A DNA stretch of 55,643 nt, counting the filler, from Jimgerdemannia flammicorona (lineage: Eukaryota): assembly GCA_003990765.1 (NCBI GenBank). It is 3 parts of 3 records of this genome, joined end to end, with 100 filler letters (N's around TTAATTAATTAA, not from the genome) between each part and the next. Parts side by side here need not be neighbours in the genome. Positions count along the whole stretch, not along the records: positions 1 to 18,483 come from RBNJ01002203.1; 2 more parts are not named here. One strand, written 5' to 3'. Positions 1-55,643 of this stretch are shown here, piece after piece (the stretch's first letter is position 1; every line of letters starts with the position of its first letter). Both the position numbers and the translations under genes were made by a program. A model generated the notes under the pieces. It did not search any database. It was not told the DNA's origin and saw only the letters and a list, made by a program, of their open reading frames with translations.

Positions 1-1802
1 AAAAGAGAACTTCAGCTTGGTTCCATAGAGGGAAAAGAATGTCTTCCAGAAGTTGCTTGTGAACTTGGCATCTCAGTCAGATACAATGGTGCTAGGCATG
101 CCATGTAGTCTGAATACTTGATTGAGGAAAATCTCAGCAATGTCTGGTACTGTAGCAGTGGTCTTGGTGGGTGCAAAGTGGGCTTGTTTGTTTGGATAGT
201 CTACGAAACCACAATGGCATCCCATCCTGCCTTGGTTTTGGGGAGTTGGACAATGAAGTCCATTGCAATCTGATCCCAGTTGTGACTCGGGATAGGCAAG
301 GGTTGCAGGAGTCCTGCTGGTAGCATGTTACCACTTTTGAACCTTTGGTACATCTCGCATGAGGCCACAAAGTCTTTGATATCCTTGGTCATCTTTGGCC
401 AGTAGAACTCTCTTGAGAGGAGGTTGTAGGTCTTTTTGAAACCAAAGTGTCCTGCTGCAGGAGTATCATGGAGTTCCTGCATGATCTTGAGTCTCAGAGT
501 ATCATTATTGGGTACAACCACTCTGTCATGGTCCCTGTAGATAAGTCCATCATGGTAGGTGAATCTCTTGGCCATTTGCCTCATGGGTTCTGGGACCTCG
601 GCCTCTGGATCTTAGCAGAATTGAAGGAATTTCATCAGGGGGCTGTCTTGCTGGTAGCCATCCTTGATCATTTGAGTAAGGTCTCCAATTACTTCGATAA
701 TGAAGACAAGTTCATCTTCCATATAGCTGGAGAAACCATCAGCCATATGGTTGGTTTTGCCTGAGATATACTTGATTTCCATATCAAAGTTGGCAATGAT
801 TTCCATCCAGCAGGCTTATCTGTGGGTCAGTATGGGCTGTGTGTGAATATACTGCAATGCATGGTGATCAGTATAGGCCACAAATGGCTGTCCTAGGAGG
901 AAATGGCGCCATTCCTGGAGTACAGTAACAATGGCCAGAAGTTCCTTCTCATGGGTGGTATACCGGGTCTCAGCTGGCTTGAGCTTTTGGGAAAGGTAGG
1001 CCACTGGGTGGTCTTCTTGGCTGAGCACTGCTCCAATAGCAATATCAGAGGCATCTGTGGTCAGGGTGAATGGCCTGGTAGGGTCAGGTGCAATTAGCAC
1101 TGGGGCTTTGGTAAGGAGTCTCTTGAGATGGTCCATAGCCAGGGTGCATTCAGGGGTCCATTCAGCTTTGATGTTCACTCCTTTGCAGGCCAGGCTGGTC
1201 AATGGGGCTGTAATAGCAGAGTATCCTTAGATAATCCTTCGGTAATAACTGGCAATACCCAGAAAGCACTGGAGTAGCTTGAGGGTAGTAGGGATAGGGA
1301 TATCCTTAAGGGCTGATACCTTTTGGGGGTCCACATTGATATCTTCAGTAGAGATGATGTGTCCTAGATACTTGATCTGGTCTTGATAGAACTTACACTT
1401 GCTCATCTTGGCATAGAGCTGGTGTTCTCGCAGGAGGGTCAGCACTTGTCTGAGGTGAGTGTAGTATAGCTCTACTGTCTCACTATAGATTAGTATATCA
1501 TCAATATACACAAGGATACAGATGTTGAGAAGTGGTCCAAAGATGTCATTTATCAGATACTGGAAAGTTGCTGATATATTGGTCAATCCAAAAGGCATGA
1601 CTCAGAACTGGTAGTGTCCAAACCATGTTCGGAAAGCTGTCTTCTCATTGTCCTTCTCATCAATGAGAATCTGGTGGTAGCCATTTTGCAAGTCTAGTAG
1701 GAAAAAGGTCTTGGCCTTGAAGATTTGATGTAGCAACTTATCAATCCTAGGCAAGGCATACTGGTTCTTGATGGTGATCTTATTGAGGGCTCTGTAGTCA
1801 AT
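1..1802 (-). pseudogene. pol: A1 pol: RT (MPFGLTN, YIDD), RNase H (TTDASD), integrase N-terminus (ELHDTPAAGHFG, IAMDFIVQLP); several stops
   Basis: ORF fragments 1602-1817, 1227-1598, 816-1202, 612-806, 201-584 carry the canonical Gypsy motifs in RT-RH-IN order. Confidence 0.95.
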
Positions 1803-2617
1803 TGTAATAACTCTCACTTCTACCCCTCTCTTATCCTTTGGATAATTAGGGAAGTGGACTATTACTTAGGGACTTAGTACACAATATGTACCAAGAAGCC
1901 TTCAGTTTGAGGAAGCATTCGCTTATAAGTAGTTGTAGTGGCAGTGCCTTCTGTTTCAAAGGTCTTTCTCTGGCTTGCCTTCTGTTTCAAAGGTCTTTCT
2001 CTTGTATCCTATTTCAAGGGTCTTGTTCTTTGCTGTGCACAGACTGAATTCACTTTAGAATTCAGATTCAATGGGTTTACTTAAGTCTTTGGGAATTTAT
2101 ATACTGGTCTCAGTTCTGGCAGAAGTTAGCTAGGCTTCTGGAGTTTAGTCAGAAATACTAGAGTCACTTAGATGTCATTACTAAGACTCAGGGGAATGTG
2201 TGTGTGTGGGGGGAACTTGATTCTTGTATCAAGGACTGAACTAAAACTACTTTATTTCGGATGGAAACTGGGGGGTATTTATACAAGTTGGTTCATGATT
2301 TCTGACTAAGTATGAGTGACTAATTTGGTAACTATCATGAGGTTTGTGATTGCAACCTTTGGCAGGTGGTTTTTGGTAAAGAATATCTTTGTGATCAGGA
2401 CCTCAATTACTAGGCAATGATCAGCAGCTGTGGCAACTGTTGCTGTGGTGCCAGTTGTCAGGGATAAGCTAAATATCATTTTCTGCATCATTCGTTTGTA
2501 TCATTCATTCATTCATCATATGCCATGCTCGATCGTATGATGATGTCATCACCAGGTCATGTGATCATTTGTGATCGCTTGTCGTGTCCCATCTGTTTGC
2601 TCATTCATTCTATTACA
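1803..2617 (-). repeat. 3' LTR of A2
   Basis: Near-identical to 10176-10989; TG..CA ends with 7-bp inverted termini; contains a 31-bp tandem duplication (1946-2002) absent from the A1 LTR. Confidence 0.96.
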
Positions 2618-3458
2618 TTCTTCCCCCCTTAGAAATCAATGTCCTCATTGATTGAGAAATTGAGAACCAGGGGAGAGAAGATGGGAAATTCTGCTCAGGA
2701 TTGTTGGCATCTTCTTCAGTAGCAGGGGGGGTAGTGGTTGCTGATGGCTTGCTGTCCAGGATGGAGAAGTCAATGAGGTCTGCAAATGGTTCTTGTATTG
2801 GAATAGGTGCTGGTATAGGGGTTCTCCATCTGATGCAGTTGGGGCCATCTAAGTAGGGTTCATGATCTTCATGCCTGGGAATATCTATTTGGATAGGTGG
2901 TCCTTCAAAGAGGTCAGAGAGGCCTTGGAGCCATTGGTCAGGGTTGTCATTCAGGAGGAGGCTCTAGTGAGGCTTGATGTCAGTAGACTTGGGGGTGATC
3001 CAGGAGTTGGCTTCTTGGGCTACCTTGATCTCTAGTTCATCAACCTTGAAGAAGAAGAGGTTCTGGAAGTCCTTCAGTTAGACATAGTTGAGGTTGGGGA
3101 TTGCAAAGGGTGCATGGCACATGATTTGATGGACCTTCTTGGCAAGTCTTTGTTTGTGCCTATCCAGATGGGTCCAGTCAGATACCTGGTCAGTGGGTAG
3201 GCCATTTGTACGTTGGAGAAGCTGATGACTAATTTCATATTCATGCCAGATTTCTAGGTGGCTGGTAGCAAGGTAGGCCCTTTCGATAAGTTCGCAGTAG
3301 TCAAGGACATACTGTCCTAAGTCTGGGCTGGAGAGGTTAAGGGCCTCTGAGTGGTGGTTCCTTCCTTGGATAGCAATCTGGATGTGGCCAAAGAGGCAGT
3401 CAACCTGGCTTGAGAGGGGCTGGCTATGGCGGGCAGTTTGGCAGTGGGTAGCAGGCAT
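2613..3458 (-). pseudogene. Accessory ORF3 of family A (~281 codons, two internal stops), unknown function
   Basis: One frame from ATG 3458 through the PPT to TAA 2613-2615, with only TAA (3078-80) and TAG (~2965); N-terminal half aligns by eye with the U3 ORF of family B. Confidence 0.7.
2618..2630 (-). other. Polypurine tract of A2
   Basis: AAGGGGGGAAGAA on the minus strand directly before the 3' LTR. Confidence 0.9.
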
Positions 3459-3523
3459 TCTTGTCTTGTCCTTTTCTTTGTAAGGGGAGGGGGATGAGGG
3501 TTGCGGGGTATTCTTGCCTTGGG

Positions 3524-3531
3524 TATTTATA
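3524..3531 (-). promoter_or_regulatory. Putative internal TATA box for ORF3
   Basis: TATAAATACCC ~66 nt upstream of the ORF3 ATG; the same TATAAATACCC motif is in the family A (~2271-2283, minus) and family B (48118) LTRs. Confidence 0.55.
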
Positions 3532-4153
3532 CCTATTCATCCATCTGATGTGATCTTCCTTTGGTCATGCTTTCTGGCAATATACATGACCTGTTGCTGT
3601 AAGTGGGGCATGTGCTGGTCAAATGAGAATATCCTGATTTCAAAGATATCATTACTTGTAATTGTGGTTACACAGGGTTAACAGGTCTTGGTCCATTTTT
3701 TTTTTGTCTGGTTGACACATTTGCAAGGACTGGCCATCCTTGTCTAGGGTGAGGGCTCCCATTGTCATGGCTGGGGGTTTGAACCTCTCAGAAATAGACT
3801 TTCTTGTAATCCAAGGCAATTCCTAGTAACAATATCTGTCACGTGGATAGGCTTAGACTGGTTTCAATATTATCAGCTTTTCTAAGTTCCATATGAAGCA
3901 TCTGTCATCATCAAGCAGAGATGACACAGATGGCATGAAATGGAGTTGTTCAAATATGTTTTGCTGTACTGAACTAGATTGTTCTTTTGCTCAGGTATCT
4001 TCTTGTTGGTTATCCATAGTGCTTCTTTTTCTGCAATGTTCGGTATTATATGTTTCCAGATAAAATATGTAGTATTCTTCTGCTCACTATGGGCTCCAAT
4101 ACTTAGAGCTGTAGTTCTTTCCTTTGCTGGGGGGTGAGTGTTTCCATATAGTC

Positions 4154-7100
4154 CTAGAGGGCTTCACATGTATTCTTCAGGATCTCTTCTTTTTCCCAGA
4201 TGGCATTATGGGTGGGGTAACTCTTCCACTTAATCAGAAAGAACTGCTTGACTGATTTGGGATATTTGCAGACCTTGTGGTCAAGTACTTCCTCAATTTC
4301 GAATTCCTCATGATCATTGATCCTAATTGGAGGTGGTGGTGGAACTGTACACTTGAGGAATGGGTTCTTATGGTAGTCCACCAATTGGCTGATATGGAAT
4401 ACTGAGTGTACTTGGATATTGTGAGGGAGTTGCAACTTGTAGTTGACTTTGCTGATATTTTCCACAATCTTGTATGGTCCATTTCTTCTGGCATAGAGTT
4501 TCTTGGCTGGTTGTTGTACTAGGGTATCTGGGTGGAGATGGTCTATTCTAAGCATAACCATGTCACCAATATTGTAGGAGGCTTCTCTTCACTTCAAGTT
4601 CACATACTTGGTCTGGTAGTCTTGTGCTTCTATGAGAGCATCTCTTGTTATTTGGATAAGATCAGAAATGGTCTTGGCCAGATCTTGGGCTGCTGGGACT
4701 GCTGATTTCACAGTGGTACTTGGGGTCCTTGGGTATTGACCATGGTTCAGAAAGAATGGGGTCTTCTTTGTAGAGGTTTGCTGACTATTGTTGTAGGCAA
4801 ACTCAGTATGGGCTAGGTACTTGTCCTAATCATTTTGCTTGTAACAGCAGAAGATGCTAAGCATCTGTTTGAGAGTCCTGTTGATTCGCTCAGTTTGACC
4901 ATCAGTCTGAGGGTGGTAGGCAGTAGAGAACTTCAGCTTGGTTCCATAGAGGGAGAAAAATGCCTTCCAGAAGTTGCTTGTAAACTTGGTATCTCGGTCA
5001 GATACAATAGTGCTAGGCATGCCATACAGCCTGAATACTTGATTGAGGAAAATCTCAGCAATCTCTGGTGCTGTAGCAGTGGTCTTGGTGGGTACAAAAT
5101 GGGCTTGTTTACTTAGGTAGTCCATGAATACTACAATGGCATCCCATCCTGCCTTGGTCTTGGAGAGTTGGACAATGAAGTCCATTGCAATCTGGTCCCA
5201 GTTGTGACTCAGAATAGGCAAGGGTTGCAGGAGTCCTGCTGGTAGCTTGTTACTACTTTTGAATCTTTGGCATATCTTATATGAGGCTACAAAGTCTTTG
5301 ATGTCCTTGGTCATCTTTGGCCAGTAGAACTCACTTGAGAGGAGGTTGTAGGTCTTTTTGAAACCAAAGTGTCCTACTGCAGGAGTATCATGGAGTTCCT
5401 GCATGATCTTGAGTCACAGAGTATCATTGTTGGGTACAACCACTCTGTCATGGTCCCTGTAGATAAGTCCATCATGGTAAGTGAATCTCTTGGCCATTTG
5501 CCTCATGGGTTCTGGGACCTCGGCCTCTGGGTCTTGGTAGAATTGAAGGAAATTCATCAGGGGGCTGTCTTGCTGGTAGCCATCCTTGATCATTTGGGTA
5601 AGGTCTCCAATTACTTCAACCATAAAGACAAGTTCATCTTCCATATATCTAGAGAAACCATAAGCCACACAGTTGGTTTTGCCTGGGATATACTTGATTT
5701 CCATATCAAAATTGGCAATGATTTCCATCCAGCGGGCTTGTCTGTAGGTCAGCATAGGCTGTATATGAATATACCACAATGCATGGTGATCAGTATAGGC
5801 TACAAATGGCTGTCCTAGGAGGAAATGGCACTATTCCTGGAGTGCAGTGATAATAGCCAGGAGTTCTGTGGTATACCAGGTCTCAGCTGGCTTGAGCTTC
5901 TGGAAAAGGTAGGCCATGGGGTGGTCTTCTTGGCTGAGTACTGCTCCAATAGCAATGTCAGAGGCATCTGTAGTCAAAGTGAATGGTCTGGTAGGATCAG
6001 ATGCAATTAGTACTGGGGCCTCAGTAAGGAGTCTCTTGAGATGGTCTATAGCCAGGGTGTATTTGGGGGTCCATTCAGTTTTGATATTCACTTCTTTGTA
6101 GGCCAGGCTGGTTAATGGAGCTGCAATAGCAGAGTATCCTTAGATAAATCTTTGGTAGTAACCGGCAATACCCAGGAAGCACTGGAGTAGCTTGAGGGTA
6201 GTAGAGATGGGGATATCCTTAAGGACTGATACTTTTCGGGGGTCCACATTGATATCTTCAGCAGAGATGATGTGTCCTAAGTACTCGATCTGGTCCTGAT
6301 AGAACTTACACTTGCTCATCTTGGCATAGAGCTAGTGTTCTTGTAGGAGGGTCAGTACTTGTCTGAGATGGGTGTAGTGTAGCTCTACTGTCTCACTGTA
6401 GATTAGTATATTGTCAATATACACAAGGACACAGATGTTGAGAAGTGGTCCAAAGATGTCATTCATCAGATACTGGAATGTTGCTGGTGCATTGGTCAAT
6501 CCAAAAGGCATGACTCAGAACTGGTAGTGTCCAAACCATATTCAGAAAGCTGTCTTCTCAATGTCCTTCTCATCAATGAGAATCTGGTGGTAGTCATTTC
6601 ACAAATCCAGTAGAGAAAAGGTCTTGGCCTTGAAGATTTGGTGTAGTAACTCATCAATTCTAGGTAAGGCATACCGGTTCTTGATGGTGATCTTGTTGAG
6701 GGCTCTATAGTCAATATACATTTTCAGAGAGCCATCCTTCTTTTTGACAAATAGAATGGGGGCCCAAAATGGAGAGCGGCTGGGTTCAATGTATCCTTGG
6801 GCCAGTAGTTTGGTCAATTTGTCCTTGAGGGTCTTGAGCTCAGGTTGGGCCAGTTGGTAGATACTCTTGTATGGGGGTTCAGATCCTGGAAAAAGATCAA
6901 TTCCATGTTGGATTTGGCACTTGGGTGGAAGTCCTTGGGGTTCTTGGAATATATCTTAGAATTCTTCAAACAGTTCTTGAGCTTCTATTGAGATTGGGCT
7001 ACTTATAGCTTCAGTGACTTCTTGTACTGTACAGATGAAGTAGGTGTTTCCCTTTTTTCAAGAGAGTCTTTTCATTTGAATGGCAGAGATGATCTTGATT

Positions 7101-9285
7101 CCTTGGTGGCTGGTACCTTCCTGGGGTATCAGGGTGATCTTTCTGCCTCCATGGGTCAGGTTAACCTTGTTGGTTCTCCAGTTGATGTCTGGGTTGTGCT
7201 GGGTCAACCAGGCTTTTCCTAAGATAATATCTTGTCCTGGGAGGTCTACAATGCTGAAGTCCAACTTCTCTTGATATTTGCCAATCTTGAGCAAGAGATC
7301 TTCACAGATTTTGGTCAATGGTGCAGTTTTTCCATCACTAAAGGTGACACTTCTTTTCTTGGTGGTTGGTCTGCTTCGGGCTCCAATTCTCTTAGCAGTC
7401 TTGGTGCTGATATAGTTTCCAGTAACACTACTATCAAGCAAGACATTGACATTCTGTCTGTGGACTTGGCCTGTGAATTTAATGCAACTATCCTCCTTCT
7501 TGATAGTATTGAGCTCTTCATCCTCATTGTTGTCCCAATTGCTGTCAGTCTCCTTGAAGTCAGATTCTCCCCATCCTTCACAAGGAGAGTTGTCTTGTTT
7601 AGGTTCCTCAATCTGTTGAGCTTGGCATTTCTCGGATTGAATTTTGAAAACTTTGGAGAGGTATGCATGGCATTCACCAACATGTTCCATGCAGTACATT
7701 CAAATAAAATGAGGGCATCATCCACATGGTACATAACTATCTGCAATTCTCTTGTACCAGTTTTCATCATCTTCCTTCATGGTAGTGACCTTTGACTGAG
7801 GGGTTTGTTGGTAGATCCAAACCCTTTCTTGCCATGGTCTGTCTGGGAGAGTTCGGGGACTTCTTCAATGGTGAGATCTTGATGGATTTCTTCAATGATT
7901 GCTTGGGCAATCCTTTGGCCTGTTTTGACTTCAAATGATGTGTCTCCAAAATATCGCAAGATGACATGGATTTCACCAGTAAATTCTTGGTCAACTACTC
8001 CTCCTCCTAGCCCAATTTTGAACTCTTTGGCTAGGCTGCTTCACTCAGCAAGGCGGATGTATGTATCTCTGGGAGCTTGCATTGCAATTCCTGTTCACAC
8101 TGTAGCATTGGTACTTGGTGGGATGGTGAGGTCTTAACTGCTGTAAAGATCATATCCAGCATCAGTTGGGTGGGCCTTAGTGAGGATGGTGGTCTTGTAC
8201 CATATCTTCTATACTTTGATGACATTCTCAGAGTTCTTCTTTCCTAGATCTTCTCCAATGACAGTAATGTTCTGGTTACTGGGTTCGTCTGATCTGTTTC
8301 TCTTCTCGGGGCATCTGACTGAGATATGTCCTGCCTTCTTACAGATGAAGCACAATCCCTTTTTGTGGAGCTGCTTCTTTTCATCCTCAGTAGGAGGTCT
8401 GGGTCCTCTGGGATTTTGCTAGTTCCATTGATCATATCTTGGATCATATCTTGGATCATTCCTTTGATCATTTCTCCTGGTAGGATTCCTTCTATCTTGG
8501 TTATCCTTCTTGTGTTCTTGATTTCATGGAGCTTGTGCAGCAAGGATTTCGCAGGCTCTTCTTTGTACTTGGGCAAAGCACCATGAGTAGTGGGGACATC
8601 CTTGGGGAAGACCTTGTTCCTTGATCTTCTGGGTGAGCCAGTCTGGTAGGGCTGCAAAGAGATGATTGGCTCTGGTACCATTGATGGCCAAATTGTTCTC
8701 CTGGTAGGTAAGTCCAATGGTTTTGAGATAGGTATCTATTCTGGTGGCAAAGGTCTCTAGATCTTCTTCACCATTCTTGTGGAACTTCATCTGGGACAGT
8801 TTATTCCAAGTTTCTTGTATGTAGGCCGCATTTCAGAATTTGGTCTGTAGCAAGACCTTGAGTCCTGGGCCTGTTTTGTAGTTATCCCAACCTGGTCTAT
8901 TATTGGTAGGTACTTGTCCAATGACTTGGTGGTGGGCTTCCCAGGTTACTGGGTGTTGTTTCAAGATTCACCAGAATTTGGCTGCTGTTCCAGTGAAGAA
9001 TGTGGCTACTGTTTCCACTTGTACTGCTGATGTGACAAACAGTTGTTAGAGGGTGTTGATCTGGTTGTTGGTGAGCATTCCTATAGGCACTCAGTTGTCA
9101 TTCTATTGATTTGCTCAGTAGCCTGTGTCAACTGTATTGATGAAGTTTTCGATGTAACTGTTTTTTCCACTGAATGTTGGGATTCGCAGAGTCTTGGTTG
9201 ATTTGTTCTGTTCAGCAATCTGTCCTACAATCTCTGCTAGTACTGCTAGCTGGGTGGTCAGTGCTGTAATATTGGTATCTACCAT
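4154..9285 (-). pseudogene. gag-pol: A2 gag-dUTPase-pol: capsid, CCHC knuckle, dUTPase, protease, RT, RNase H, integrase, chromodomain; many stops and indels
   Basis: Motifs LLDSS (PR), IDYRALN (RT), TTDASD (RH), IVSDRD/TAYHPQTDGQTE (IN), EFEIEEVLDH...FLIKWKSYPTHNAIWE (chromodomain). Confidence 0.95.
7810..8230 (-). pseudogene. dut: dUTPase domain in A2
   Basis: AGYDL, GGVVDQEFTGEI, RIAQ and GKKGFGST motifs; boundaries approximate. Confidence 0.9.
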
Positions 9286-10163
9286 TGTGTTGACTATTGA
9301 TGGTGGGCCTGTTGGGGTAGATTCTCCTGAAGATTGTTCTGCTTGGTGGGGTTGTAGTGCTATATGACTTGGAGTTACTTGATTTCTAGATATTAAGTCA
9401 AAGAGTCCTGTAAGAGAGGGTAAACCAAACCTCTGTATAGGTGGCTGGGTTGGTTCAGGGGTCTGATCTTCTTGACCTGTGGTTCCTTGGTAAATTCCTA
9501 GGCCTGCTGTTCCTCATTGGCTATTGTCAGACTGGTAACCTGTAGAGTCTTCGTCTGACTCCCTTCCCTGATGAGATAGTGCATCCTCATACTGACTAGG
9601 TCTTTCAAAGAGGATATCAGTCTCTGGCTGAGTAGATGGGCCTGCTCCTTGTTCAGCAGTAGGGGATGGTTGGCCTGCTTGCTCGTTCTCATACCTAGTT
9701 ATGGCAGAGGTATAGTATACAACTAGCCTGTAGTAGAGGGAGGTCTTGGTAGGGGTATGATGATATCTGTCAGAGGCAATCCACTTGGCAGCTACTTCTT
9801 TTGCAGCAGGGGGTGTGATATAATCTAGAACATCCTGGGTGGCTGCAGCAGTAGATTCTGAGGTCCTAGTGGTTCCAATGTATCCTCAGAGGAGTTCGTC
9901 AAACCTATGGTGGCTAACTATATTTCTAAGTCCTGGGTGGTATATCCTAAAGGCCTGGTATAGATTCTTGTAAGCCTGGTCAATTACAAGCTAGCAGGTC
10001 TCTGTGTCTGTGGTTTCTTGGTACCACCTGGTCCTAATGGCAAGGGCTTCTCTGGCTCTGGTTTGAGAATCCACAGTTAATTCTGGGGTATACTCCTGTC
10101 CAAGGTTGGTCTTGTTTCAACTTCAGGAGTGTATTCTTTGGTACCTTCTTGGCTGGTAATCCA

Positions 10164-10172
10164 CTGCTACCA
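10164..10172 (-). other. Primer-binding site (initiator tRNA-Met type) of A2
   Basis: TGGTAGCAG 3 nt (ACT) after the 5' LTR; complementary to a ...CUGCUACCA tRNA 3' end. Confidence 0.8.
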
Positions 10173-10175
10173 AGT

Positions 10176-10989
10176 TGTAATAACTCTCACTTCTACCCCT
10201 CTCTTATCCTTTGGATAATTAGAGAAGTGGACTATTACTTAGGGACTTAGTACACAATGTGTACCAAGAAGCCTTCAGTTTGAGGAAGTGCTCGCTTATA
10301 AGTAGTTGTAGCGGCAGTGCCTTCTGTTTCAAAGGTCTTTCTCTGGCTTGCCTTCTGTTTCAAAGGTCTTTCTCTTGTGCCCTATTTTGAGGGTCTTGTT
10401 CTTTGCTGTGCACAGACTGAATTTACCTTAGAATTCAGGTTCAATGGGTTTACTTAAGTCTTTGGGGATTTATATACTGGTCTCAGTTCTGGCAGAAGTT
10501 AGCTAGGCTTCTGGAGTTTAGTCAGAAACACTAGAGTCACTTAGATGTCATTACTAAGACTCAGGGGAATGTGTGTGTGTTGGGGGACTTGATTCTTGTA
10601 TCAAGGACCGAACTAAAACTGCTTTATTTCAGATGGAAACTGGGGGGTATTTATACAAGTTGGTCCGCGATTTCTGACTAAGTATGAGTGACTAATTTGG
10701 TAACTATCATGAGGTTTGTGATTGCGATCTTTGTCAGGTGGTTTTTGGTAAAGAATATCTTTGTGATCAGGACCTCAATTACTAGGCAATGATCAGCAGC
10801 TGTGGTAACTGTTGCTGTGGTGCCAGTTGTCAGGGATAAGCTAAATATCGTTTTCCACGTCGTTCGTTTGCATCGTTCATTCGTTCGTCATATGCCATAC
10901 TTGATCGTATGATGACATCATTGCTGGGTCACGTGATCATTCATGATCACTCGTCGTGTCCCATCTGTTCACTCATTCATTCTATTACA
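10176..10989 (-). repeat. 5' LTR of A2
   Basis: Direct repeat of 1803-2617, followed on the minus strand by the PBS. Confidence 0.96.
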
Positions 10990-13565
10990 TCAATACACAT
11001 TCACAGAGAACCATCCTTTTTCTTGACAAATAGAATGGGGGCTCCAAATGGAGAGTGGCTGGGTTCAATGTATCCTTGGGCCAGTAGTTTGGTCAATTCA
11101 TCTTTGAGGGTCTTGAGTTCAGGTTGGGCCAGTTGATAGATACTCTTGTATGGGGGTTCAGATCCTGGAATAAGATCAATTCTATGTTGGATTTGGCACT
11201 TGGGTGGAAGTCTTTGGGGATCTTGGAATACATCTTGAAATTCTTTGAACAGTTCTTGAGCTTCTGTTGGAATTGGGCTGCTTGTAGCTTCAGTGACTTC
11301 TTGTACTATACAGATTAAATAAGTGTTTCCCTTTTTTTGAGAGAGTCTCTTCATTTGAATGGCAGAGATGATTTCGATTCCTTGGTGATTGGTACCTTCC
11401 TGGGGTATCAGAGTGATCTTTCTGCCTTCATGGGTCAGGTTAACCTCATTGGTTCTCCAGTTGATATCTGGGTTGTACTGGGTCAACCAGGCTTTTCCTA
11501 GGATAATGTCTTGTCCTGGGAGATCTACAATACTGAAGTCTAACTTCTCTTGATATTTGCCAATCTTGAGCAAAAGATCTTCACAGATCTTGGTCAATGG
11601 TGCAGTTTTTCCATCATCAAAGGTAACATTTCTTTTCTCAGTGGCAGGTCTGCTTCAGGCTCCAATCCTCTTAGCAGTCTTGGTGCTGATATAGTTTCCT
11701 GTAGCACTACTATCAAGCAAGACATTGACATTTTGTCTGTGGACTTGGCCTGTGAACTTGATGCAACTGTCCTCCTTCTTGATGGTATTGAGCTCTTCAT
11801 CTTCATTATTATCCCAATTGCTGTCAGTCTTCTTGAAGTCAATTTCTCTCCATCCTTCACAAGGAGGGTTGTCTTGTTTGAGTTCTTCAGTCTGTTGGGC
11901 TTGGCACTTCTCAGATTGAATTTTGAAAACTTTGGAGAGGCATGCATGGCATTCACCAACATGTTCCATGCAGTACATTCAGATGGAATGAGGGCATCAT
12001 CCACATAGTACATAACCATCTGCAATTCTCTTGTACCAGTTTTCATCATCTTCCTTCATGGTAGTGACTTTTTGACTGAGGGGTTTGTTGGTAGATCCAA
12101 ACCCTTTCTTGCCACAGTCTGTCTGGGAGAGTTCGGGAACTTCTTCAATGGTGAGATCTTGATGGATTTCTTCAATGATTGCTTGGGCAATCCTTTGGCC
12201 TGCTTTGACTTCAAATGATGTGTCTCCAAAATTTCACAAGATGACATGGATTTCACCAGTAAATCCTTGATCAACTACTCCTCCTCCTAGCCCAATGTTG
12301 AACTCTTTGGCTAGGCTGCTTCGCTCAGCAAGGTAGATGTATGTACCTCTGGGAGCTTGCATTGCAATTCCTGTTCGCACTGTAGCATTGGTACTTGGTG
12401 GAATGGTGAGATCTTGGCTACTGAAGAGGTCATATCCAGCATCAGTTGGGTGGGCCTTAGTGGGGATGGTAGCCTTGTACCATATCTTCTGTACTTTGAT
12501 GATATTCTCGGAATTCTTCTTTCCTGGACCTTCTCCAATAACAGTAATGTTCTGGTTACTGGGTTCATCTGATCTGTTTCTCTTCTCAGGGCATCTGACT
12601 GAGATGTGTTCTGCCTTCTTGCAGATGAAGTACAATCCCTTTTCACAGAGCTGTCTCTTTTCATCCTCAGTAGGAGGTCTGGGTCCTCTGGGGTTTTGCT
12701 GGTTCCTTTGATCATATCTTTGATCATATCTTTGGTCATTCCTTTGATCATTTTTCCTGGTAGGATTTCTCCTATCTTGGTTATCCTTCTTGTGTTCTTG
12801 ATTTCGTGGAGCTTATGCAGCAAAGATTTTGTGGGCTCTTCTTTGTACATGGGCAAAGCACCATGAGTAGTGGGGACATCCTTGGAGAAGACCTTATTCC
12901 TTGATCTTCTGGGTGAGCCAGTCTGGTAGGGCTGCAAACAGATGGTTGGCTCTGGTACCATTGATGGCCAAATTGTTCTCCTGGTAGGTAAGTCCAACAG
13001 TTTTGAGATAGGCATCCATTCTAGTGGCAAAGGTCTCTAGATCTTCTTTGCCATTCTTATGGAACTTCATTTGGGACAGTTTGTTTCATGTTTCTTGTAT
13101 ATAGGCCACATTTTGGAATTTGGTCAGTACCAAGGCCTTGAGTCCTGGGCCAGCTTCGTAGTCATCCCAACCTGGTCTATTGTTGGTAGGTGCTTGTCCA
13201 ATAACTTGGGGGTGGGCTTCCCAGGTTACTGGGTGTTATTCCAAGGTTCACCAGAATTTGGCTGCTGTTCTAGTAAAGAATGTGGCTACTGTTTCTACTT
13301 ATGCTACTGATGTGGCAAATAGTTGTTGAAGGGTACTGTTCTGGATGTTGGTGAGCATTTCTATAGGTACTCGGTTGTCATTTCATTGGTTTTCTCGGTA
13401 GCCTGTATCAACTGCATTGATGAAGTTTTCGATGTCACTGTTTTTTCCACTGAATGTTGGGATTCACAGGGTCTTGGTTGGTTTGTTCTGTTCAGCAATC
13501 TGTCCTACTATCCCTGCTAGTACTGTTAGCTGGGTAGTCAGTGCTGCAATGTTGACATCTACCAT
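10990..13565 (-). pseudogene. gag-pol: A1 gag-dUTPase-protease-RT start
   Basis: Degenerate CCHC knuckle (YFICKKAEHISVRC) in frame with AGYDL...ERSSLA...GGGVVDQGFTGEI; LLDSSATG protease; [14 protein letters not shown] start. Confidence 0.95.
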
Positions 13566-14444
13566 TGTGTTGACTATTGGTGGTGGGCCTGTTGGGGTAG
13601 ATTCTCCTGAAGATTGTTCTGCTTGGTGGGGTTGTGATGCTGTATGACTTGGAGTTACTTGATTTCCAGATATTAAGTCAAAGAGTCCTGTGAGAGAGGG
13701 TAAACCAAATCTCTGTATAGGTGGTTGGGTTGGTTCAGGGGTCTGATCTTCTTGACCTATAGTTCCTTGGTAAATTCCTAGTCCTGCTGTTCCTCATTGG
13801 CTATCATCAGACTGGTAACCTATAGAGTCTTTGTCTGACTCCCTTCCCTGATGAGATATTGTGTCCTTGTACTGACTAGATCCTTCAAAGAGGATATCAG
13901 TCTCTGGCTGAGTAGATGAGCCTGCTTCTTGTTCAGCAGTAGGGGATGGGTAGCCTGCTTGCTTGTTCTCATACCTGGTTATGGCAGAGGTATAGTATAC
14001 AACTAGCCTGTAATAGAGGGAGGTCTTGGTTGGGGTATGATGATATCTGTCAGAGGCAATCCACTCGGCAGCTGCTTCTCTTGCAGCAGGGGGTGTGATA
14101 TAATCTAGAAAATCCTGGATAGCTGCAGCAGTAGATTCTGGGGTCCTAGTGGTTCCAATGTGTCCTCGGAGGAGTTTATAGAACCTACAGCAGCTGACAA
14201 TATTCCTAAGTCCTGGGTGATATGTCCTAAAGGCCTGGTATAGATCATTGTAAGCCTGGTCAATTACAAGCTAGTGGGTCCTTGGGTTTGTGGTTTCCTG
14301 GTACTACCTGGTCCTAATGGCAAGGGCTTCTCTGGCTCTGGTTTGAGGATCCACAGTTGTTTCTGGGGGTTACTCCTGTCCAAGGTTGGTCTTGTTCTAA
14401 CTTCAGGAGTATGTTCTTTGGTGCCTTCTTGGCTCGGTAATCTG

Positions 14445-14453
14445 CTGCTACCA
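14445..14453 (-). other. PBS of A1
   Basis: TGGTAGCAG 3 nt after the LTR. Confidence 0.8.
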
Positions 14454-14456
14454 AGT

Positions 14457-15243
14457 TGTAATAACTCTCACTTCTACCCCTCTCTTATCCTTTGGATAAT
14501 TAGGGAAGTGGACTATTACTTAGAGACTTAGTACACTATGTGTACCAAGAAGCCTTCAGTTTGAGGAAGCACTCACTTAAAGTAGTTTGTAGCAGCAGTG
14601 CCTTCTGTTTCAAAGATCTTTCTCTAGTGTGCCCTATCTTTCAAGAGTTTTGTTCTTTGCTGTGCACAGACTAAATTCGCCTTGGAATTTAGGTTCAATG
14701 GGTTTACTTAAGTCTTTGGGGATTTATATACTGGTCTCAGTTCCAGCAGAAGTTAGCTAGGCTTCTGGAGTTTAGTCAGAAACACTAGAGTCACTTAGAT
14801 GTCATTACTAAGACTCAGGGGAATGTGTGTGTGTGGAGGGGACTTGATTCTTGTATCAAGGACTGAACTAAAACTGCTTTATTTTGGATGGAAACTGGGG
14901 GGTATTTATACAAGTTGGTCTGTGATTTCTGACTAAGTATGAGTGACTAATTTGGTAACTATAATGAGGTTTGTGATTACGACCTTTGTCAGGTGGTTTT
15001 TGATAAAGAATAACTTTGTGATCAGGACCTCAATTTCTAGGCAATGATCAGCAGCTGTGGTAACTGTTGCTGCAGCGCCGATTGTTGGGGATAAGCTGGA
15101 TATCATTTTCCGTGCCATTTCGCATCATTTGTCACTCACTATTCATATGTTGCACTTGATCGTATGATGACGTCATCACCGCCGGGTCACGTGATCATTC
15201 ATGATCGCTCGTCGCGTCCCATCTGTTCACTCGTTCTATTACA
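14457..15243 (-). repeat. 5' LTR of A1 (787 bp)
   Basis: Homologous to the A2 LTRs; TGTAATA...TATTACA termini. Confidence 0.95.
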
Positions 15244-18200
15244 ATATCTACCCCCCAGCATTTGGCTGTCAGAATCCAGTCAATCCTCATACCTAGTCCA
15301 TTCACCCAGTGTGTGTAGATCTTCTTTTCTCTCCACTATGTTCTACCTATATCTCCTAAGAAGCTAAGGTTCTCCACCTCCTTCCAAGCATCCAGACCCC
15401 CACTCCTCCCACCTGCACTCTTCTCTCTATCAGTTCTATCCAACCAAAGACTCTGCACCATATTAAAGTCACCTCCCAGAACATCTACTCCTTCCTCCAA
15501 GAAAATACCCTTCTCCAAAAGATCCCTAATCAACCCAATCTGCTCACCTCTAGCCATAGGGCAGTAGTAAGAGCCTACTCTCACTGGCTTCCACTCAGAT
15601 TGATGCCATTCTCCCCAGACCAAATGGTCACCCCAGCTCCTGATTCCACCCAAATCTCCTCTACCCCTCCTCACCAGAATTGCCACTTTGTCAATCCAAG
15701 CTGTAGCTCCTCCCCATTCTCTAGTCCACTCTATCTGATTCTCCTCATTCTCACACTATATGTATATCCTGCAGCAGAAAGAGATCAGCCTCCAATCCCT
15801 TAAGCCAAGTAAAAATGTTCTTATACTGCCCAGATCCCCTTAACCCATTCACATTCAGAGAGAAAATGTTAGTTATACTATTCATAATGAATAATATTAA
15901 ATATCAAGCTCATCCTCTACAAATCTGCATTCAACCTCTCCTGTACCAAGTCCAAGATATGTTCAGTAGCCAGTTTCTCCTCTTCAGCCATCTTTGCCTC
16001 CAGCCCAACCAGAAGCTCAGCTATCTCCCCATCCTCTTTATCCTCGAAGTCCTCATGATACTCCAGGCATGCCTCTTGCCAGAGTTGTAAACTATGCTGC
16101 TCTGCCCAATAGTAGGCAGCCCACTCACCAGCAACAACTGCCAGCTCAGCCTTCCTCTCCTCATCAACCTCATATCCCTCCTTCTTCAGGAAAATAGCAA
16201 GTACCTCTGCCTTCAGCACCTCCACCACCCCATCTCTATACAGAATCCATGCCCAATGCTCCTTACTTATTACTCTCAGATCCACATCCCCCAACTCCTC
16301 AGCTGTAAAGTTATCTATCATCTGGCTCATCTACAGCAGGTTTCCCACCTTCTTCCCTCCTGGTATCCCCAGTCTTCCCACATCCAGCATCATGATATCT
16401 GCCCCTACACTAGCAGTTCCTCCTCTGGGACATCCACCAGCTCATCCTCACTAATCACCACCACCTGTTCTCCTTTTGCCATATCAGGAACTCCAAAGTG
16501 TACTTGCTGAATGCTCCACATCAGCTCATTCTCTGCCACCCAACCCCTTGCAGCAAGACCTTGTCTGACTAGAGAGAGAGTATCTTTCAAGACTAGCTCC
16601 CAGACTTTGAATGTACCATCAGCAAAAGGGTCCTTATGCAGCATCTTTCTGGCCCCATCCAGGCCCTCCTCTACATCTTCTCCTCTCTTACTAGCCCAGA
16701 CACTCACCTCTATGTCCCCAGACTTCTCTGTGCTCCCAGCATTCTTCTTCGCCCCTTCTTCTATGCTCACCAGCAGCTTCCTCTGCTTCTTGTACCCTTG
16801 AGCTCTCCCCCACTACCTCTTGTCAGTGCAAATATATTTCCCATCTACAATCTCCAAATGTGTCAACTCTACATACAACTTCCAGGCCTTTGCCCTCTAC
16901 TCTACTGCCCCACTCATCTCCTCTAGAGCCTCCAACAAGTTCTCCTCCTCCTCTTCACTCTCTTTCACTCTTGACACCTTACAGATAAAAGCCCCCCACA
17001 TTATCACCAAAGGCCAGTCACTCATCTTCTCTGTGGCCTCTCTCCCAGCCAGTTTAATTCTGACATCCACATCTCCTATCCTGAAAGTGGTCCCCTCCTA
17101 CATCTGGAAACTAATATTGACCACATCACTATACTCTATCATCACCTCCTCCACCCTTCTCCTAGTCTCAACCTTTGTCACTATAGGTACCCCCTTTACC
17201 AGTAACTGAACCACTCTGGGGTCCCATCTCAAGCACTACACCATAGGGACCACTACCTTATCAATAGCTACTCTAGATTTCAATGCTTTCTCCAGCAGGT
17301 CTGCCTCCTCAAATCCCACTTCAACTCTCTTCAGTTCCTTCAGGAACTTCACCAAGGCAGCTCCAGCCACCTGTTCTGAGATAATCCCCAGAACCATCCT
17401 CACTTTCACAGCTAAGCCCCAGAAGCACAAGATTGCTACAAACTCTGAGATTGACTTCTTGAGTAACAGTGGCACCACTACCCCCATCATACCATTGGCC
17501 AGGTCCCCCTTCCTCTTTGGGCCCATCTGTCCAGCCATATCATCAATAGTTATATCTGGATTTTTTTCCAAATTCCCAGTCTCGCCACTATCAGCAGTCC
17601 CCCCCCCTACTCTCATCTACTGCTCCACTAGCCCTTCCCTCTACCAGCTGAGGTCCAGCACCTCCCACTTCTCCTTCCCTCTGCTTTCTCTTCCCCTCCA
17701 TCTGTCCACTATGAGATCCAATAGGCCATCCACTATTCTTCAATGTATTGGCAAAGCTCCTCTCTTGCTGCCCTCCTACCCCTCCCCCAGTGCTACTACT
17801 ACTGCCTGAACTGCCCTGCCCACTCAGACCACCAAACAACCCCATCACTAATCTATACCCATGTCCAACATATTGCCAGTTGAAGGCTCCAGGTCCACCT
17901 GACCTAGTATGTATATTAGCTTGCTTGTTGGTTGCCATTGTCTTAGTACCTTTCTCTAATAAATGCTTGAAAGTATGTTGTAAAAGTGTGTATAACATGA
18001 GTGGTAACTGCTCTGCTCTTCCTCCTCCTCACTCCCCTTCACTCTCATCACCTTGCTTAAGAAAGCCCCCCAAACCATCACCAAAGGTCAGTTATTAGCC
18101 TTCTCTGTAGCCTCCTTCCCCATCAGTTAAATCCTAATATCAACATCCCTAGTCCTGAACAAGATCTCCTCTCAGACCCGGAATCCAACATCAACTACCT

Positions 18201-36983: not shown

Positions 36984-37064
36984 TGGGAGATCCAGGAATT
37001 CGGAGAATTCAGCGAATTCGACGGGGGTGGCGGGAAGGGGGGCAGCGGGAAGGGGGGCGGCGGG

Positions 37065-37164: not shown

Positions 37165-37180
37165 AAAAAAAAAAAAAAAA

Positions 37181-38671
37181 GAGAGTTACTTTTTTAGGGT
37201 AGCCATTACATAGTTCTGGAAGAGTTTTCTGGAAGTTCTGGATATTCTGGAAGACTATTTTCTTATGGTCAAGATCAATTTCATATGAAGTACATCCTCT
37301 ATGCTTATTGATTTCAAGATCAGGTTGATGTCTCAACCAAAGTCCTTTTTCAGACTAGTTCTGAATGTTCAGGATTCTCTATATTTCAGGAAGTTCAAGA
37401 AACTAAGACTAGCTTAGTTGAATCAGCATATTGCTGCAGACAATATCCAATTAGGAAATTTTATGATGGGGTTAAGAGTGGGATCTAATGGAGAGCAGAT
37501 TTACTTAAGAGTGGTTTGTGGATTATTAAATAGGTTTATTCACTATTCATGATATTGCTATACTAGGAGTTGGTTGTATGAAGGAATATTATAGGGAAGT
37601 GCTCAGGAGTTATGTTCAAATTGTTCAGATCTTTTCAAGTCTGAGATTCTGAGGTCTGGGTGAGGGGGTATTTATACTAGTGAGGGGCTATCTGGACTAT
37701 GCTAAATATGGATATAGCACTAAGTACTTTGCTGAGTTGGAATGCAGTCACATAGTACAAGTGTGATCTGATATGTCAAGAGATCAACTGACTGCTGAGT
37801 CAGTTCACAGTCATGTCATACAAGACTAATCTAACTATACTATAACTGCTAGGCTATTTATAGGTTTAGACACTGTCTGGAAAGTCTTTGATGATATTAC
37901 CATTGATGACATCATTGCTGGCAAAGTCTGAGCAGTTTTCTAACTTCTGATGTCATTAGTTTCAAAAGTATTGTCACTTCTATCTCTTATAAGATTAAGG
38001 CTGTCCTTGGTGGTGGTAGTTGTACTAGGATAATAGGTCTTGGTTCTTTTTTTTTTTGGTCTGCTGGTGCATTTGTGAGGACTGGCCATTCTCATCTAGG
38101 GCAAGGGCTCCCAATGTCATAGCTGGGGGTTCAAACCTCTTGGAAATGATATTTTCTATAATCCAAGGCAATTTCTAGTAGTAATATCTATCACATGGAT
38201 GGCTTGAGATTGGTTTTGACATTGTTGGCTTTCTTGAGTTCAGATAAAGCATCCATCACTCTCCAACAGAAGTGACACAGATAGAGTAAATAGAGTTGTT
38301 CAAATGTGTTTTGCTTCTGCTAAGTAATGAGGTCTTGTATAGTTACAGTGTATCTTGGTCTTGAGTTGATAAGTGTAGTTCGTGAACCTTTTGGTAGATG
38401 AGATAGAGTTCTTCTTGTCTCAATTTGAGTTTGGTACTTTCAGTTTTCTTTTGTAATTATACAGTACACTAAACTAGTTATAGTGGTTCAGAGTCAATCT
38501 TATGGTTATAGTACTTCTTCTAGTATTCTTGTATCTTGGTGGTGGGTTCTCGTGCTTGCTGGCATATTTTGTATAACCAGATGATCTCTTGTTTGTAGTC
38601 TTGTATGTGGTTTCCAAATTAGTTCTGAGGATGCCATGTGATTTTGGTGGCTTGGAGGTTGTGTGCTTATA
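37181..38671 (-). repeat. LTR of a family-B-related element (B'), ~1.5 kb, with different U3 content
   Basis: Starts TATAAGCACACAACCTCCAAGCCACCAAAAT (cf. 46570); 37181-~37915 is the reverse complement of ~47890-48600; the middle instead matches family A 3690-3970. Confidence 0.8.
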
Positions 38672-46299: not shown

Positions 46300-46683
46300 A
46301 GTGCTCAGAAAGATAACTTTATTGTAATTTGTAATATTATTACTAGTCTATTTGAAAAAGTCAAGAAAGAGTATACCAAAGATAACAATATATAAGAAAT
46401 TACTAAAAAAAAATCCTTAAAGAAGGCAGCAATATCATGAAAAAGATCTACAAAAATATATCTATTCAAAATAGATATATGTATCTTAATAATATAAGAA
46501 TCTAGATCTCTGATATCTCTATCTACATATAAATTCTATAAGAACTATATAATATACCTATAGCTAGATTGTAAGCACACAACCTCCAAGCCACCAAAAT
46601 TACACATCACTCTCTGAACAAAGCCACTGAAATCACATGCGACCTTCGAACAAATCTGGAAATCACCTGCTTGATCATGAAGC

Positions 46684-46721
46684 TGAGTCAAACCGAAGTC
46701 ACAGTACACAAAGCTGAGTCA
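46684..46721 (+). promoter_or_regulatory. Two TGAGTCA (Gcn4/AP-1-type) sites in a 31-bp tandem repeat in U3
   Basis: TGAGTCA at 46684 and 46715, retained in the 3' LTR; TGACTCA also at 47992. Confidence 0.4.
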
Positions 46722-46830
46722 ATACGAAGTCACGGAACACAAGATCTACATAAACGGAACCTTATCAATCAGGACCAAATGCATATATACTGAGCACCGA
46801 GACACGTCAAATCAGAGAACCAAAACAAAC

Positions 46831-47928
46831 ATGACCACTGAGATCTACAACTACATCTGCGCTGATATTTGGAATGCCATTGTCAACCGAGCCACACCCC
46901 CTCTGCCCCTCATGAATATCCATAGCCTGGTACCCCTCTACTTCATGGAAGCCCGATGGAATGCCCTGAACATGCTTAGCGAGGCCCACCAAATCAGACA
47001 AATCTCAAGCTACTACCAGATCAGCCGCCTCTTGGAAGACATGGTTGAACACCACCATGATACAGATATTACCCAGATGTCTCAACACCAGAAGCTCATT
47101 GCCCGCAAACATCGAGAACTCTTCTATGAGTACAACACCTTTATTCCCTGCCTCCGAGTCACTACCAGCGAAATGGTTGCTACTCTGTCCTATGGCCAAA
47201 TTGATGACATGATACAAGAACTCAACCACAAGTACCTCGAATACATCCAGACCACAGACAGAACCTTCCCGCACCCTGATGACCATATCCTGCAAATGCC
47301 TCAAGTCGGATACACCATGAAGGACGTCTACGATATAATCCACTTCGATGAAGATGAAGCAGAAGACAATGATCCCTCCGACGCAGACATGACCTCTAGC
47401 CAAGGATCTCTGCCAACTCTGATCACTCCACCAATCTTGCCGATGAACTTACAACAGTTCATAACTACATACGAGACTTATTGGGACAATGACCACTGGC
47501 ACGAATACCAACCTGTGTTCACCCCCGATTACTTCAATTATAATGAAGAGACCAGAGAACACAACCTATACCTGCAGACAACCCTCGAGATCGAACCAAC
47601 CACTCCACCACTCAAGTACAAGCAACATGAACCACAGCCACCAGCATACTATAACCCCGCAACTCATAGTGCTGTAACCTATAGAAGGTACGCAGACAGC
47701 GAATCCGATGAAAGTGAAGACAGTACATCCATCCTTCACCCACCAACACCTTATCCAGTATACGAAACAGACGATGCTATCCTGTGGGACGGAGATGAAG
47801 TCCCAATGTATTACTACCTCAGCCAACAAGGAGAAGTAATCTGCGAACTATTATTCCTAGACAACTACTTCATCAGAGATGATGCAATCAATGGTGATGT
47901 CATCGAGGACTACCCAGATAGTGCCTAA
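46831..47928 (+). CDS. LTR(U3)-encoded accessory protein, 365 aa, unknown function
   Basis: Intact ATG-to-TAA ORF inside the LTR; helical-looking N-half, acidic/Pro/Tyr-rich C-half; copies in the 3' LTR (ATG 55415) and the solo LTR. Confidence 0.8.
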   Translation: MTTEIYNYICADIWNAIVNRATPPLPLMNIHSLVPLYFMEARWNALNMLSEAHQIRQISSYYQISRLLEDMVEHHHDTDITQMSQHQKLIARKHRELFYEYNTFIPCLRVTTSEMVATLSYGQIDDMIQELNHKYLEYIQTTDRTFPHPDDHILQMPQVGYTMKDVYDIIHFDEDEAEDNDPSDADMTSSQGSLPTLITPPILPMNLQQFITTYETYWDNDHWHEYQPVFTPDYFNYNEETREHNLYLQTTLEIEPTTPPLKYKQHEPQPPAYYNPATHSAVTYRRYADSESDESEDSTSILHPPTPYPVYETDDAILWDGDEVPMYYYLSQQGEVICELLFLDNYFIRDDAINGDVIEDYPDSA

Positions 47929-48117
47929 ACCTATAAATAGTCTAGCAGTCATAGTATAGTTAGATTAGCCTTGTATGATGTGACTGTGAACTGACTCAGC
48001 AGTCAGACGATCTCTTGATATGTCAGATCACACTTGTACTACGTGACTGCATTCCAACTCAGCAAGGCACTTAGTGCTACATCCATATCTAGTATAGTCC
48101 AGATAGCCCCTCACTAG

Positions 48118-48125
48118 TATAAATA
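48118..48125 (+). promoter_or_regulatory. LTR TATA box
   Basis: TATAAATACCCCC, the same motif as in family A LTRs, ~480 nt before the LTR end. Confidence 0.65.
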
Positions 48126-48609
48126 CCCCCTCCCCCAGACCTCAGAATCTCAGACTTAAACAATCCGAACACAACTCCTGAGCACTTCCCCACAATACAC
48201 CTTCACACAAATACTCCTAGTATAGCAATATCATGAATAGCAAATAAACCTATTCCATAACCCACAAACCACTCTTAAGTAAATCCGCTCTCTATTAGGT
48301 CCTACTCCTAACCCCCTCACGAAATTTCCTAATTGGGTATTGTCTGCAGCGATATGCCAATTCAACTAAGCTGGTCTTAGTTTCTTGAACTTCCTGAAAT
48401 ACGGAAAATCCTGAACATCCAGAACTAGTCCAAAAAAGGACTTTGGTTGAGACGTCAACCTAATCGTGAAATCAATAAGCGTAGAGGATGTACTCCATAC
48501 GAAATTGATCTTGACCATAAGAAAATAGTCTTCCAGAATATCCAGAATATCCAGAAAACCTTTCCAGAACTACGTAACGGTTACCCTAAAAAGCAACCCT
48601 CTTACAACT

Positions 48610-55125: not shown

Positions 55126-55126
55126 T

Positions 55127-55643
55127 TGTAAGCGCACAACCTCCAAGCCACCGAAATTATACGTCACCTTCTGAACAAGCCACTGAAATCACATGTGACC
55201 TCCGAACAAATCTGGAAATCACCTGCTTGATCACAAAGCTGAGTCAAACCGAAGTCACAGCGCACAAAGCTGAGTCAATACGAAGTCACGGAACACAAGA
55301 TCTACACAAACGGAACCTTACCAATCAGGACCAAATGCATATATACTGAGCACCGAGATGCGTCAAGTCAGAGAACCAAAACAAACAACAACCACAACTT
55401 CCAAACACACAAACATGACCACTGAGATCTACAACCGCATCCGCGCTGACATTTGGAATGCCATTGTCAACCGAGCTACACCCCCTCTGCCCCTCATGAA
55501 TATCCATAGCCTGGCCCCCCTCTACTTTGTGGAAGCCTGATGGAATGCCCTGAACATGCTTAGCGAGGCCCACCGAATTGGACAAATCTCAAGCTACTAC
55601 CAGATCGGCCGCCTCCTGGAAGACATGGTCGAACACCACCATG
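55127..55643 (+). repeat. 3' LTR of B (partial)
   Basis: Matches 46570 onward; has ~28 bp extra before the ORF ATG and a CGA>TGA stop at 55538-40. Confidence 0.95.

Follow-up and report, generated by a model that had tools for sequence, protein, structure and literature searches.

Is the open reading frame (ORF) that lies between pol and the 3′ long terminal repeat (LTR) of a Ty3/gypsy element from Jimgerdemannia flammicorona a gene in its own right, how would it be expressed, and is it related to a gene that a second family of elements carries inside the U3 region of its LTR? The locus belongs to a stretch of 55,643 nucleotides from GenBank assembly GCA_003990765.1 (the window), which consists of three parts of three records joined end to end with 100 filler letters between neighbouring parts; positions 1 to 18,483 come from RBNJ01002203.1, and all coordinates given here count along the whole stretch. 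Self-BLAST resolves the leftmost 15 kb into nested minus-strand Ty3/gypsy elements, one of which, a complete element of what we call family A, contains the frame in question as its third ORF (ORF3). The second family is referred to as family B. We conclude that ORF3 is almost certainly a real gene, that it probably has a promoter of its own, and that a non-coding segment upstream of it has crossed the LTR boundary between lineages; homology of ORF3 itself with the family-B gene is suggested, not shown.

ORF3 lies on the gag-pol strand, between the integrase chromodomain (which ends at 4154) and the polypurine tract (PPT) and 3′ LTR. As the first-pass annotation had described, a single minus-strand frame (3536..2613) is present here which, counted from the Met at 3458, spans 281 codons and is interrupted by a TAA (3080..3078) and a TAG (2966..2964). 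The annotation also had the frame reading through the PPT, but this holds only by way of a frameshift near 2670-2690: the frame shared with an intact relative, on the metagenome contig L001, ends in ...VLNFSINEDIDF at the TAA at 2631..2629. The AA of this stop codon are the first letters of the PPT AAGGGGGGAAGAA (2630..2618).

Relatives of ORF3 were found by a word-indexed protein search, which gave P0002 (214 aa, 63% identity to ORF3, on a contig of 1181 bp with whose end it ends) and P0007 (a database gene call of 342 aa, 56% identity over 81% of the query), and by a metagenome scan, which gave one locus, contig L001 (1535 bp); searches of viral contigs and genome contigs found no further relatives. 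L001 carries an intact ORF of 291 codons, stop to stop, with the start MPAL..., and its TAA overlaps the PPT AAGGAGGGAGGA, after which comes the LTR start TGTAATAAG, resembling TGTAATAG in family A, i.e. the ORF-PPT-LTR order of family A is kept. The three relatives, which are 56-63% identical to ORF3, are open wherever they cover it, and at the positions of the two stops of the window copy P0002 has R and W. At the three codon positions, family A is 70/80/54% identical to L001, compared with 58% in the 200 nt upstream, and this pattern indicates selection on the ORF3 protein.

The two stops and the frameshift in the window copy, and the absence of any Pfam or PDB match, are what would be expected if the frame were no gene but had stayed open by chance in the region that separates pol from the LTR. 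However, in our judgement this explanation is refuted by the relatives, since all three are diverged and open where they cover ORF3 and that in L001 is complete; the codon-position identities and the conserved positions of the start and the stop among the relatives also argue against it, and we regard it as highly improbable. The accessory gene that had been proposed outside the LTR is therefore genuine, and was formerly under selection, on the evidence of open relatives, codon-position pattern and conserved layout.

The ORF3 protein, of ~280-290 aa, is acidic overall (pI, i.e. isoelectric point, 4.9-5.5) and has a helical N-terminal part of ~130-190 residues; its first ~130 residues are near-neutral and the remainder is acidic and proline-rich. 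A membrane segment is absent, the maximum Kyte-Doolittle mean over 19 residues being 0.64-0.86 in four proteins. The protein has no sequence match in PDB, and at E≤1 Pfam gave no family for the N-terminal 152 aa of ORF3, for the L001 ORF or for P0007. The 116-aa C-terminal piece matched only MRPL52 (E=0.31, under the 26.6-bit cut-off), which is unrelated to Tas/Bel. Searches of the ESM Atlas with the ORF3 and family-B proteins returned unnamed clusters only, none of them common to both.

The upstream segment and the putative promoter

The region between pol and ORF3 contains a segment of ~300 nt (3965..3664, beginning 190 nt past the end of the pol frame) that matches 38315..38028 with 78% identity (E=3e-56 to 1e-60). 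The latter stretch lies within the U3 of an LTR with B-type ends, which we call the B′ LTR, and L001 retains the 3′ part of the segment in recognisable form (73% identity to B′ over 94 nt, E=5e-13). Mismatches are spread evenly over the codon phases (24/25/26), and because the substitutions have no codon periodicity we take the segment to be non-coding; a coding sequence was rejected on the same ground, and an RNA gene was rejected for want of any Rfam or tRNA match. In family A the segment is outside the LTR, upstream of ORF3, whereas in B′ it is inside U3, upstream of a remnant of the U3 gene that comprises only the last ~17 codons and is followed by two TATAAATA boxes. Material has therefore crossed the LTR boundary between lineages, and the shared segment is the firmest evidence here for DNA doing so. 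The first-pass annotation had held that the gene itself shifted position across this boundary; of that claim the crossing stands for the 300-bp upstream segment, while for the gene it depends on a protein homology that is only suggested.

ORF3 is preceded by a TATA-like box, TATAAATACCC, at 3531..3521 (62 nt to the ATG, 73 nt from the first T), as had been noted. The 12-mer GTATAAATACCC that includes it has six exact occurrences in the window, all in sense orientation: three in family-A LTRs, two in B-type LTRs and one upstream of ORF3. With at most one mismatch there are seven matches, compared with 0.23 expected, and seven were reached in none of 100 shuffles. In the LTRs the box lies 480-490 nt before the LTR end, where the LTR promoter is expected. 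At the place in L001 that matches the ORF3 box stands TATAAAAG, and although L001 is ~40% diverged in protein and hardly alignable upstream, the spacing of the TATA box is kept, with a distance from TATA to CATCCCCC of 35 nt in family A and 34 nt in L001; the ATG context ACAA..ATGCCTGC is also common to the two. The proposal that ORF3 has its own TATA box is thus borne out, in that the box is of the same 12-nt type as those of the LTR promoters and its spacing is conserved in a diverged relative. On these motifs, ORF3 probably has its own internal promoter with a start site near 3495 (-), from which a short mRNA would be transcribed as far as the poly(A) site of the 3′ LTR.

One feature of the same region weighs against an internal promoter, because the C-rich tract upstream of the ATG, with the AG that comes after it, might equally be a splice acceptor. 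ORF3 would then be translated from a spliced subgenomic RNA of the full-length LTR transcript, as retroviral and errantiviral env are, and the TATA match would be incidental. In both family A and L001 a pyrimidine-rich CATCCCCC..CC tract and then AG are found 15-35 nt before the ATG, and splicing is given as the usual route for sense ORFs after pol in PMC7264820. However, an exact 12-nt TATA box of the LTR type at a conserved distance would not be expected by this route, and the segment upstream is U3 DNA elsewhere. We therefore consider expression by splicing rather unlikely and retain the internal promoter as the working explanation.

Similarity between ORF3 and the family-B U3 gene

Families A and B are 46-47% identical in pol, and their LTR ends and TATA boxes are alike. 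They have in common a primer-binding site (PBS) core, TGGTAGCAGT, at 10161-10172 (-) in A and 48610-48621 (+) in B, and the LTR termini TGTAA...TTACA; the spacing from TATA to LTR end is 480 nt in A vs 489 nt in B. The rest of the LTRs is unalignable: in the comparison of the A LTR with the B LTR, matches are confined to the TATA box (18 nt) and to the LTR end with the PBS (31 nt). No relic of a PPT or of an LTR start was found downstream of the B gene. For profiles of the B protein, a HMMER library search gave three proteins at E≤0.001, and P0003 and P0004 were used; P0005, a tandem-repeat protein of 436 aa in which 38 residues were matched (E=3.5e-5), was judged unrelated.

The first-pass annotation had aligned ORF3 with the family-B protein by eye, and the peptide blocks that it quoted are all found where it had placed them in both families. 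Three methods chose the same ungapped block, residues 96-152 of A against 78-134 of B (50-57 columns), in the register of the by-eye alignment, and the distance of this block from the start Met is nearly equal in the two proteins. In Smith-Waterman alignments (p values empirical, from 1000 shuffles each) the N-terminal 175 aa gave z=3.1 and p=0.011 for the L001 ORF, and z=2.3 and p=0.029 for the window copy. With the third A lineage, P0007, included, hhalign scored 22.8 (P=0.03), up from 17.9 (P=0.14) without it. When the columns of the full-length B alignment were shuffled, none of 200 shuffles reached 22.8 (mean 13.8, maximum 22.2), and the reversed alignment scored 11.3; for the N-terminal part the observed score was 21.2, again reached by none of 200 (mean 12.5, maximum 19.7). 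The helix strings of the two low-confidence AlphaFold2 (AF2) models, which were predicted separately, correlate best at an offset of +17 (r=0.48), and offsets 16 and 18 are also among the four best of 141. In each protein approximately the first 130 residues are neutral and the remainder is acidic, and neither has a transmembrane segment.

Several results weigh against homology. The best BLASTP match between A and B has E=0.64, and the main block of the by-eye alignment corresponds to a BLASTP high-scoring segment pair of 12.7 bits (E=8.6). A tblastn search of the window with six proteins of the A and B families gave no cross-family match at E≤10; a match of the L001 ORF at 35904-36206 (E=3.4) was discarded, as it fell in a stretch where none of the searches gave a retroelement match. 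Over the full length the Smith-Waterman p values are 0.069 (L001 ORF) and 0.083 (window copy). The hhalign probability is 1.7%, from very shallow profiles (effective number of sequences, Neff, 1.5-1.6), and the relaxed hhalign alignment gains no confident columns beyond the 57-column core. The significance from shuffling is overstated, because shuffling columns destroys helical periodicity. The AF2 models of the two proteins are poor, with predicted local distance difference test (pLDDT) values of 33 and 32, and the folds are therefore too poor to compare; the helix strings moreover have a second peak at offset 45 (r=0.43, vs 0.48). A shift of the gene across the LTR boundary has its own counter-evidence: the B′ LTR lacks the gene, so that the A-type segment does not stand beside an intact U3 gene, and family B itself shows no similarity to that segment.

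The outcome for the by-eye alignment is therefore mixed, and its excess over chance is borderline. Its register was recovered by hhalign and by N-terminal Smith-Waterman alignment, although not with significance by BLASTP or over the full length. The two checks that had been proposed for it were also divided, the statistics by shuffling being favourable in both column-shuffle tests but not in full-length Smith-Waterman alignment, and structure prediction giving helix patterns that peak at +17 but models of low confidence.

It is quite possible, if somewhat improbable, that ORF3 and the B U3 gene are unrelated orphans gained independently at the 3′ ends of related elements, in which case their likeness would be due to chance and to a shared composition (helical, then acidic), and the 300-bp segment would be a regulatory piece swapped by recombination independently of the genes. 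The BLASTP value, the missing tblastn cross matches, the hhalign probability and the full-length Smith-Waterman values are all consistent with this explanation, as is the distribution of the two parts, since B′ has the segment without the gene and B the gene without the segment; diverse, unrelated ORF3s are also described for other LTR elements in PMC5408684. However, independent origin does not readily account for the choice of the same 50-57 columns by three methods at a near-equal distance from the start Met, for the failure of any of the 200 shuffles to reach the observed score in two tests, for the helix-pattern peak at the same offset, or for a score that climbed as diversity was added. 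On balance we lean towards homology of ORF3 with the family-B U3 gene.

Elements and other features of the window

The features on which the analysis rests are collected in the table below.

Coordinates of family-A, family-B and B′ features in the window
Feature	Position	Strand	Basis or remarks
Family-A element, complete but dead, dUTPase-bearing chromodomain Ty3/gypsy	1803..10989	-	self-BLAST, end reading, Pfam
Family-A 3′ LTR	1803..2617	-	self-BLAST, sequence reading
TATA GTATAAATACCC of family-A 3′ LTR	2284..2273	-	12-mer search
PPT AAGGGGGGAAGAA	2618..2630	-	overlaps ORF3 stop; L001 layout alike
ORF3, about 276 codons, dead copy	2629..3458	-	TAA, TAG, frameshift near 2670-2690; authentic stop TAA 2631..2629
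CATCCCCC, predicted start-site region or splice-acceptor pyrimidine tract	3489..3496	-	35 nt after TATA; function inferred
TATA box GTATAAATACCC, putative ORF3 core promoter	3521..3532	-	exact 12-mer search
Non-coding 'U3-type' segment upstream of ORF3	3664..3965	-	also in B′ LTR, partly in L001
Pol end: integrase SH3 (Tf2-1 type) and chromodomain	4154..4588	-	Pfam SH3_Tf2-1 9.4e-19, Chromo 3.4e-9
Family-A PBS TGGTAGCAGTGG	10172..10161	-	after 5′ LTR
Family-A 5′ LTR (TGTAA...TTACA)	10176..10989	-	93.8% identical to 3′ LTR
B′ LTR, B-type ends	37180..38671	-	5′ ~100 nt at 69%, 3′ ~740 nt at 88%
Family-B 5′ LTR, 2037 bp	46570..48606	+	LTR TATA GTATAAATACCC at 48117
Family-B gene inside U3, 365 codons, intact	46831..47928	+	TATATA at 46784, 47 nt before ATG
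Family-B 3′ LTR, cut by window end	55126..55643	+	preceded by PPT AAGAAGGGGAGAG

The family-A element (10989..1803) sits within pol of an older A copy and is flanked by a 5-bp target duplication, ATTGA (10994..10990 and 1802..1798). Its LTRs, of 814-815 bp, have the termini TGTAA...TTACA. In self-BLAST, 1802-2618 matches 10175-10990 (93.8%) and 14456-15256 (85.8%), 4-1802 matches 4925-6715 (90.9%), and 6711-10989 matches 10990-15243 (90.5%). Pfam matches in the element are to dUTPase, RVP_2 (aspartic protease), RT_RNaseH_2/RT_RNaseH, integrase and chromodomain; the dUTPase, protease, RNase H, integrase, Tf2-type SH3 and chromodomain matches together therefore identify family A as a dUTPase-bearing chromovirus. 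The dUTPase domain lies at 7777-8040 (-), between gag and protease (Pfam 7.4e-16).

In family B, the U3 gene of the 5′ LTR is fully open, yet gag-pol (48714-54533) is split into several frames. The two family-B LTRs are 88% identical to each other, and the gene copy in the 3′ LTR (55415-55642) has one stop within its first 76 codons; either the LTRs come from different insertions or the U3 gene copy was kept open. Directly after the stop of the B gene there is a second TATAAATA box (47932-47939), which lies 185 nt upstream of the main LTR TATA and is kept in B′ (37862-37855).

Elsewhere in the window, 38700-46340 is an AT-rich block (26-36% GC) of heavily decayed retroelement pieces, whose decay looks like that of the repeat-induced point mutation (RIP) type or similar mutational decay. 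This block includes a relic of a reverse transcriptase at 42461-43670 (+) and an inverted B-type LTR (43743-46335), in which there are a gene copy full of stops (66% identity to B) and an insert of ~520 bp. Four runs of exactly 44 N (18484-18527, 18540-18583, 37065-37108 and 37121-37164) form two pairs, the two runs of a pair lying 12 bases apart, and one pair directly abuts the B′ LTR end after a run of T. Beside the N runs, at 36707-37120 (+), a tandem coding-like motif is found (..RPQSSARHT.. repeated).

A proposed module on either side of the polypurine tract

The explanation that we favour overall, with moderate confidence, is that ORF3 is an orphan gene with its own control region and forms part of a module that can be carried on either side of the PPT. 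ORF3 is the third gene of a dUTPase-bearing chromodomain Ty3/gypsy family and encodes an orphan protein, and the module would comprise the gene, the 300-bp non-coding segment, the LTR-type TATA box and the conserved C-rich motif. The presence of the segment in a B-type U3, together with the same build of the B gene and its weak collinear similarity to ORF3, points to such an arrangement, and as judged from these comparisons it is most likely that some lineages have the module before the PPT and others after it.

The module may have moved because the PPT changed its place, or through recombination of RNAs packaged together. U3 has its 5′ boundary at the PPT, so that if plus-strand synthesis were primed from a new site before the module, both LTRs would come to contain the module, and if the new site lay after the module, the module would stay internal. 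Another possibility is that a U3-borne module came to lie in front of the PPT in an ancestor of family A, either by a template switch from one packaged RNA to another or by way of a nested LTR fragment. ORF3 is internal in L001 as well, and the internal position is therefore old within family A.

What the product does is a matter of speculation. By analogy with foamy viruses it could be a regulator of the element's own transcription, i.e. a Tas-like activator with an acidic tail, a tentative best guess prompted by the TATA box that matches those of the LTRs, the U3-type segment and an acidic tail rich in bulky hydrophobic residues; we think it doubtful, and a silencing suppressor or a replication chaperone may be equally possible.

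The closest known category for ORF3 is that of the sense additional ORFs (aORF-3S) between pol and the 3′ LTR, which are known in LTR retrotransposons and which, in the plant and insect examples described in PMC7264820, mostly resemble env, contain transmembrane segments and have spliced mRNAs. ORF3 resembles these in its place, its strand and its conservation among relatives of the element, and differs from them in having no membrane segment and no known family, in belonging to a fungal chromovirus and in its apparent own TATA promoter. In foamy viruses, according to PMC8670036, an internal promoter drives the expression of Tas, which in turn activates this promoter as well as the LTR. As with tas/bet, ORF3 is an accessory gene downstream of pol behind promoter motifs internal to the element, here on sequence evidence only, and in family A the internal TATA box agrees with that of the LTR at all 12 nt, where the foamy-virus product activates both promoters. 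The ORF3 product has no sequence relation to Tas/Bel, as judged from Pfam; the element also differs in living in a fungus and in lacking env. Bdelloid rotifers offer a further parallel, as ORF3 genes common to unrelated retroelements are described there in PMC5408684, and in that case too a module with an accessory gene passes from one lineage of retroelements to another; enzymatic or env domains can be recognised in the rotifer ORF3s, whereas the piece shared at the DNA level here is the regulatory segment.

The family-B U3 gene is itself an acidic orphan with a helical N-terminal part and weak collinear similarity to ORF3, and like ORF3 it abuts the PPT and has a TATA-like box ~50-70 nt before its ATG. 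Unlike ORF3, it is downstream of the PPT and hence in both LTRs, and it is longer (365 aa vs ~290). The textbook LTR ORF is sag of mouse mammary tumour virus (MMTV). Our literature searches found no described accessory ORF, internal promoter or LTR ORF of a fungal gypsy element, and the main text of PMC3248453, 'LTR Retrotransposons in Fungi', makes no mention of an additional, extra or third ORF or of dUTPase.

Extra genes in LTR retrotransposons have been described chiefly in plants and animals, the majority of them being env-like. If the explanation favoured here is true, a fungal chromovirus has an orphan gene that is under selection, is not env and is driven by its own promoter, and this would represent a new kind of accessory function of retrotransposons. 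Should one lineage have the module within the LTR and another have it outside, this would show directly that the boundary defined by the PPT can move, and such movement would turn an internal gene into an LTR-borne one. A bolder version, which we consider unlikely, is that fungal chromoviruses carry a portable cassette, made up of a U3-type enhancer, a TATA box and a gene for an acidic helical protein that activates the element's own promoters; in family A the cassette would be internal, in family B it would be part of the LTR. If true, these elements would be 'complex' retrotransposons, in which a Tas-like feedback loop arose independently of retroviruses. ORF3 provides a concrete, testable promoter-gene pair for asking what such elements need beyond gag and pol.

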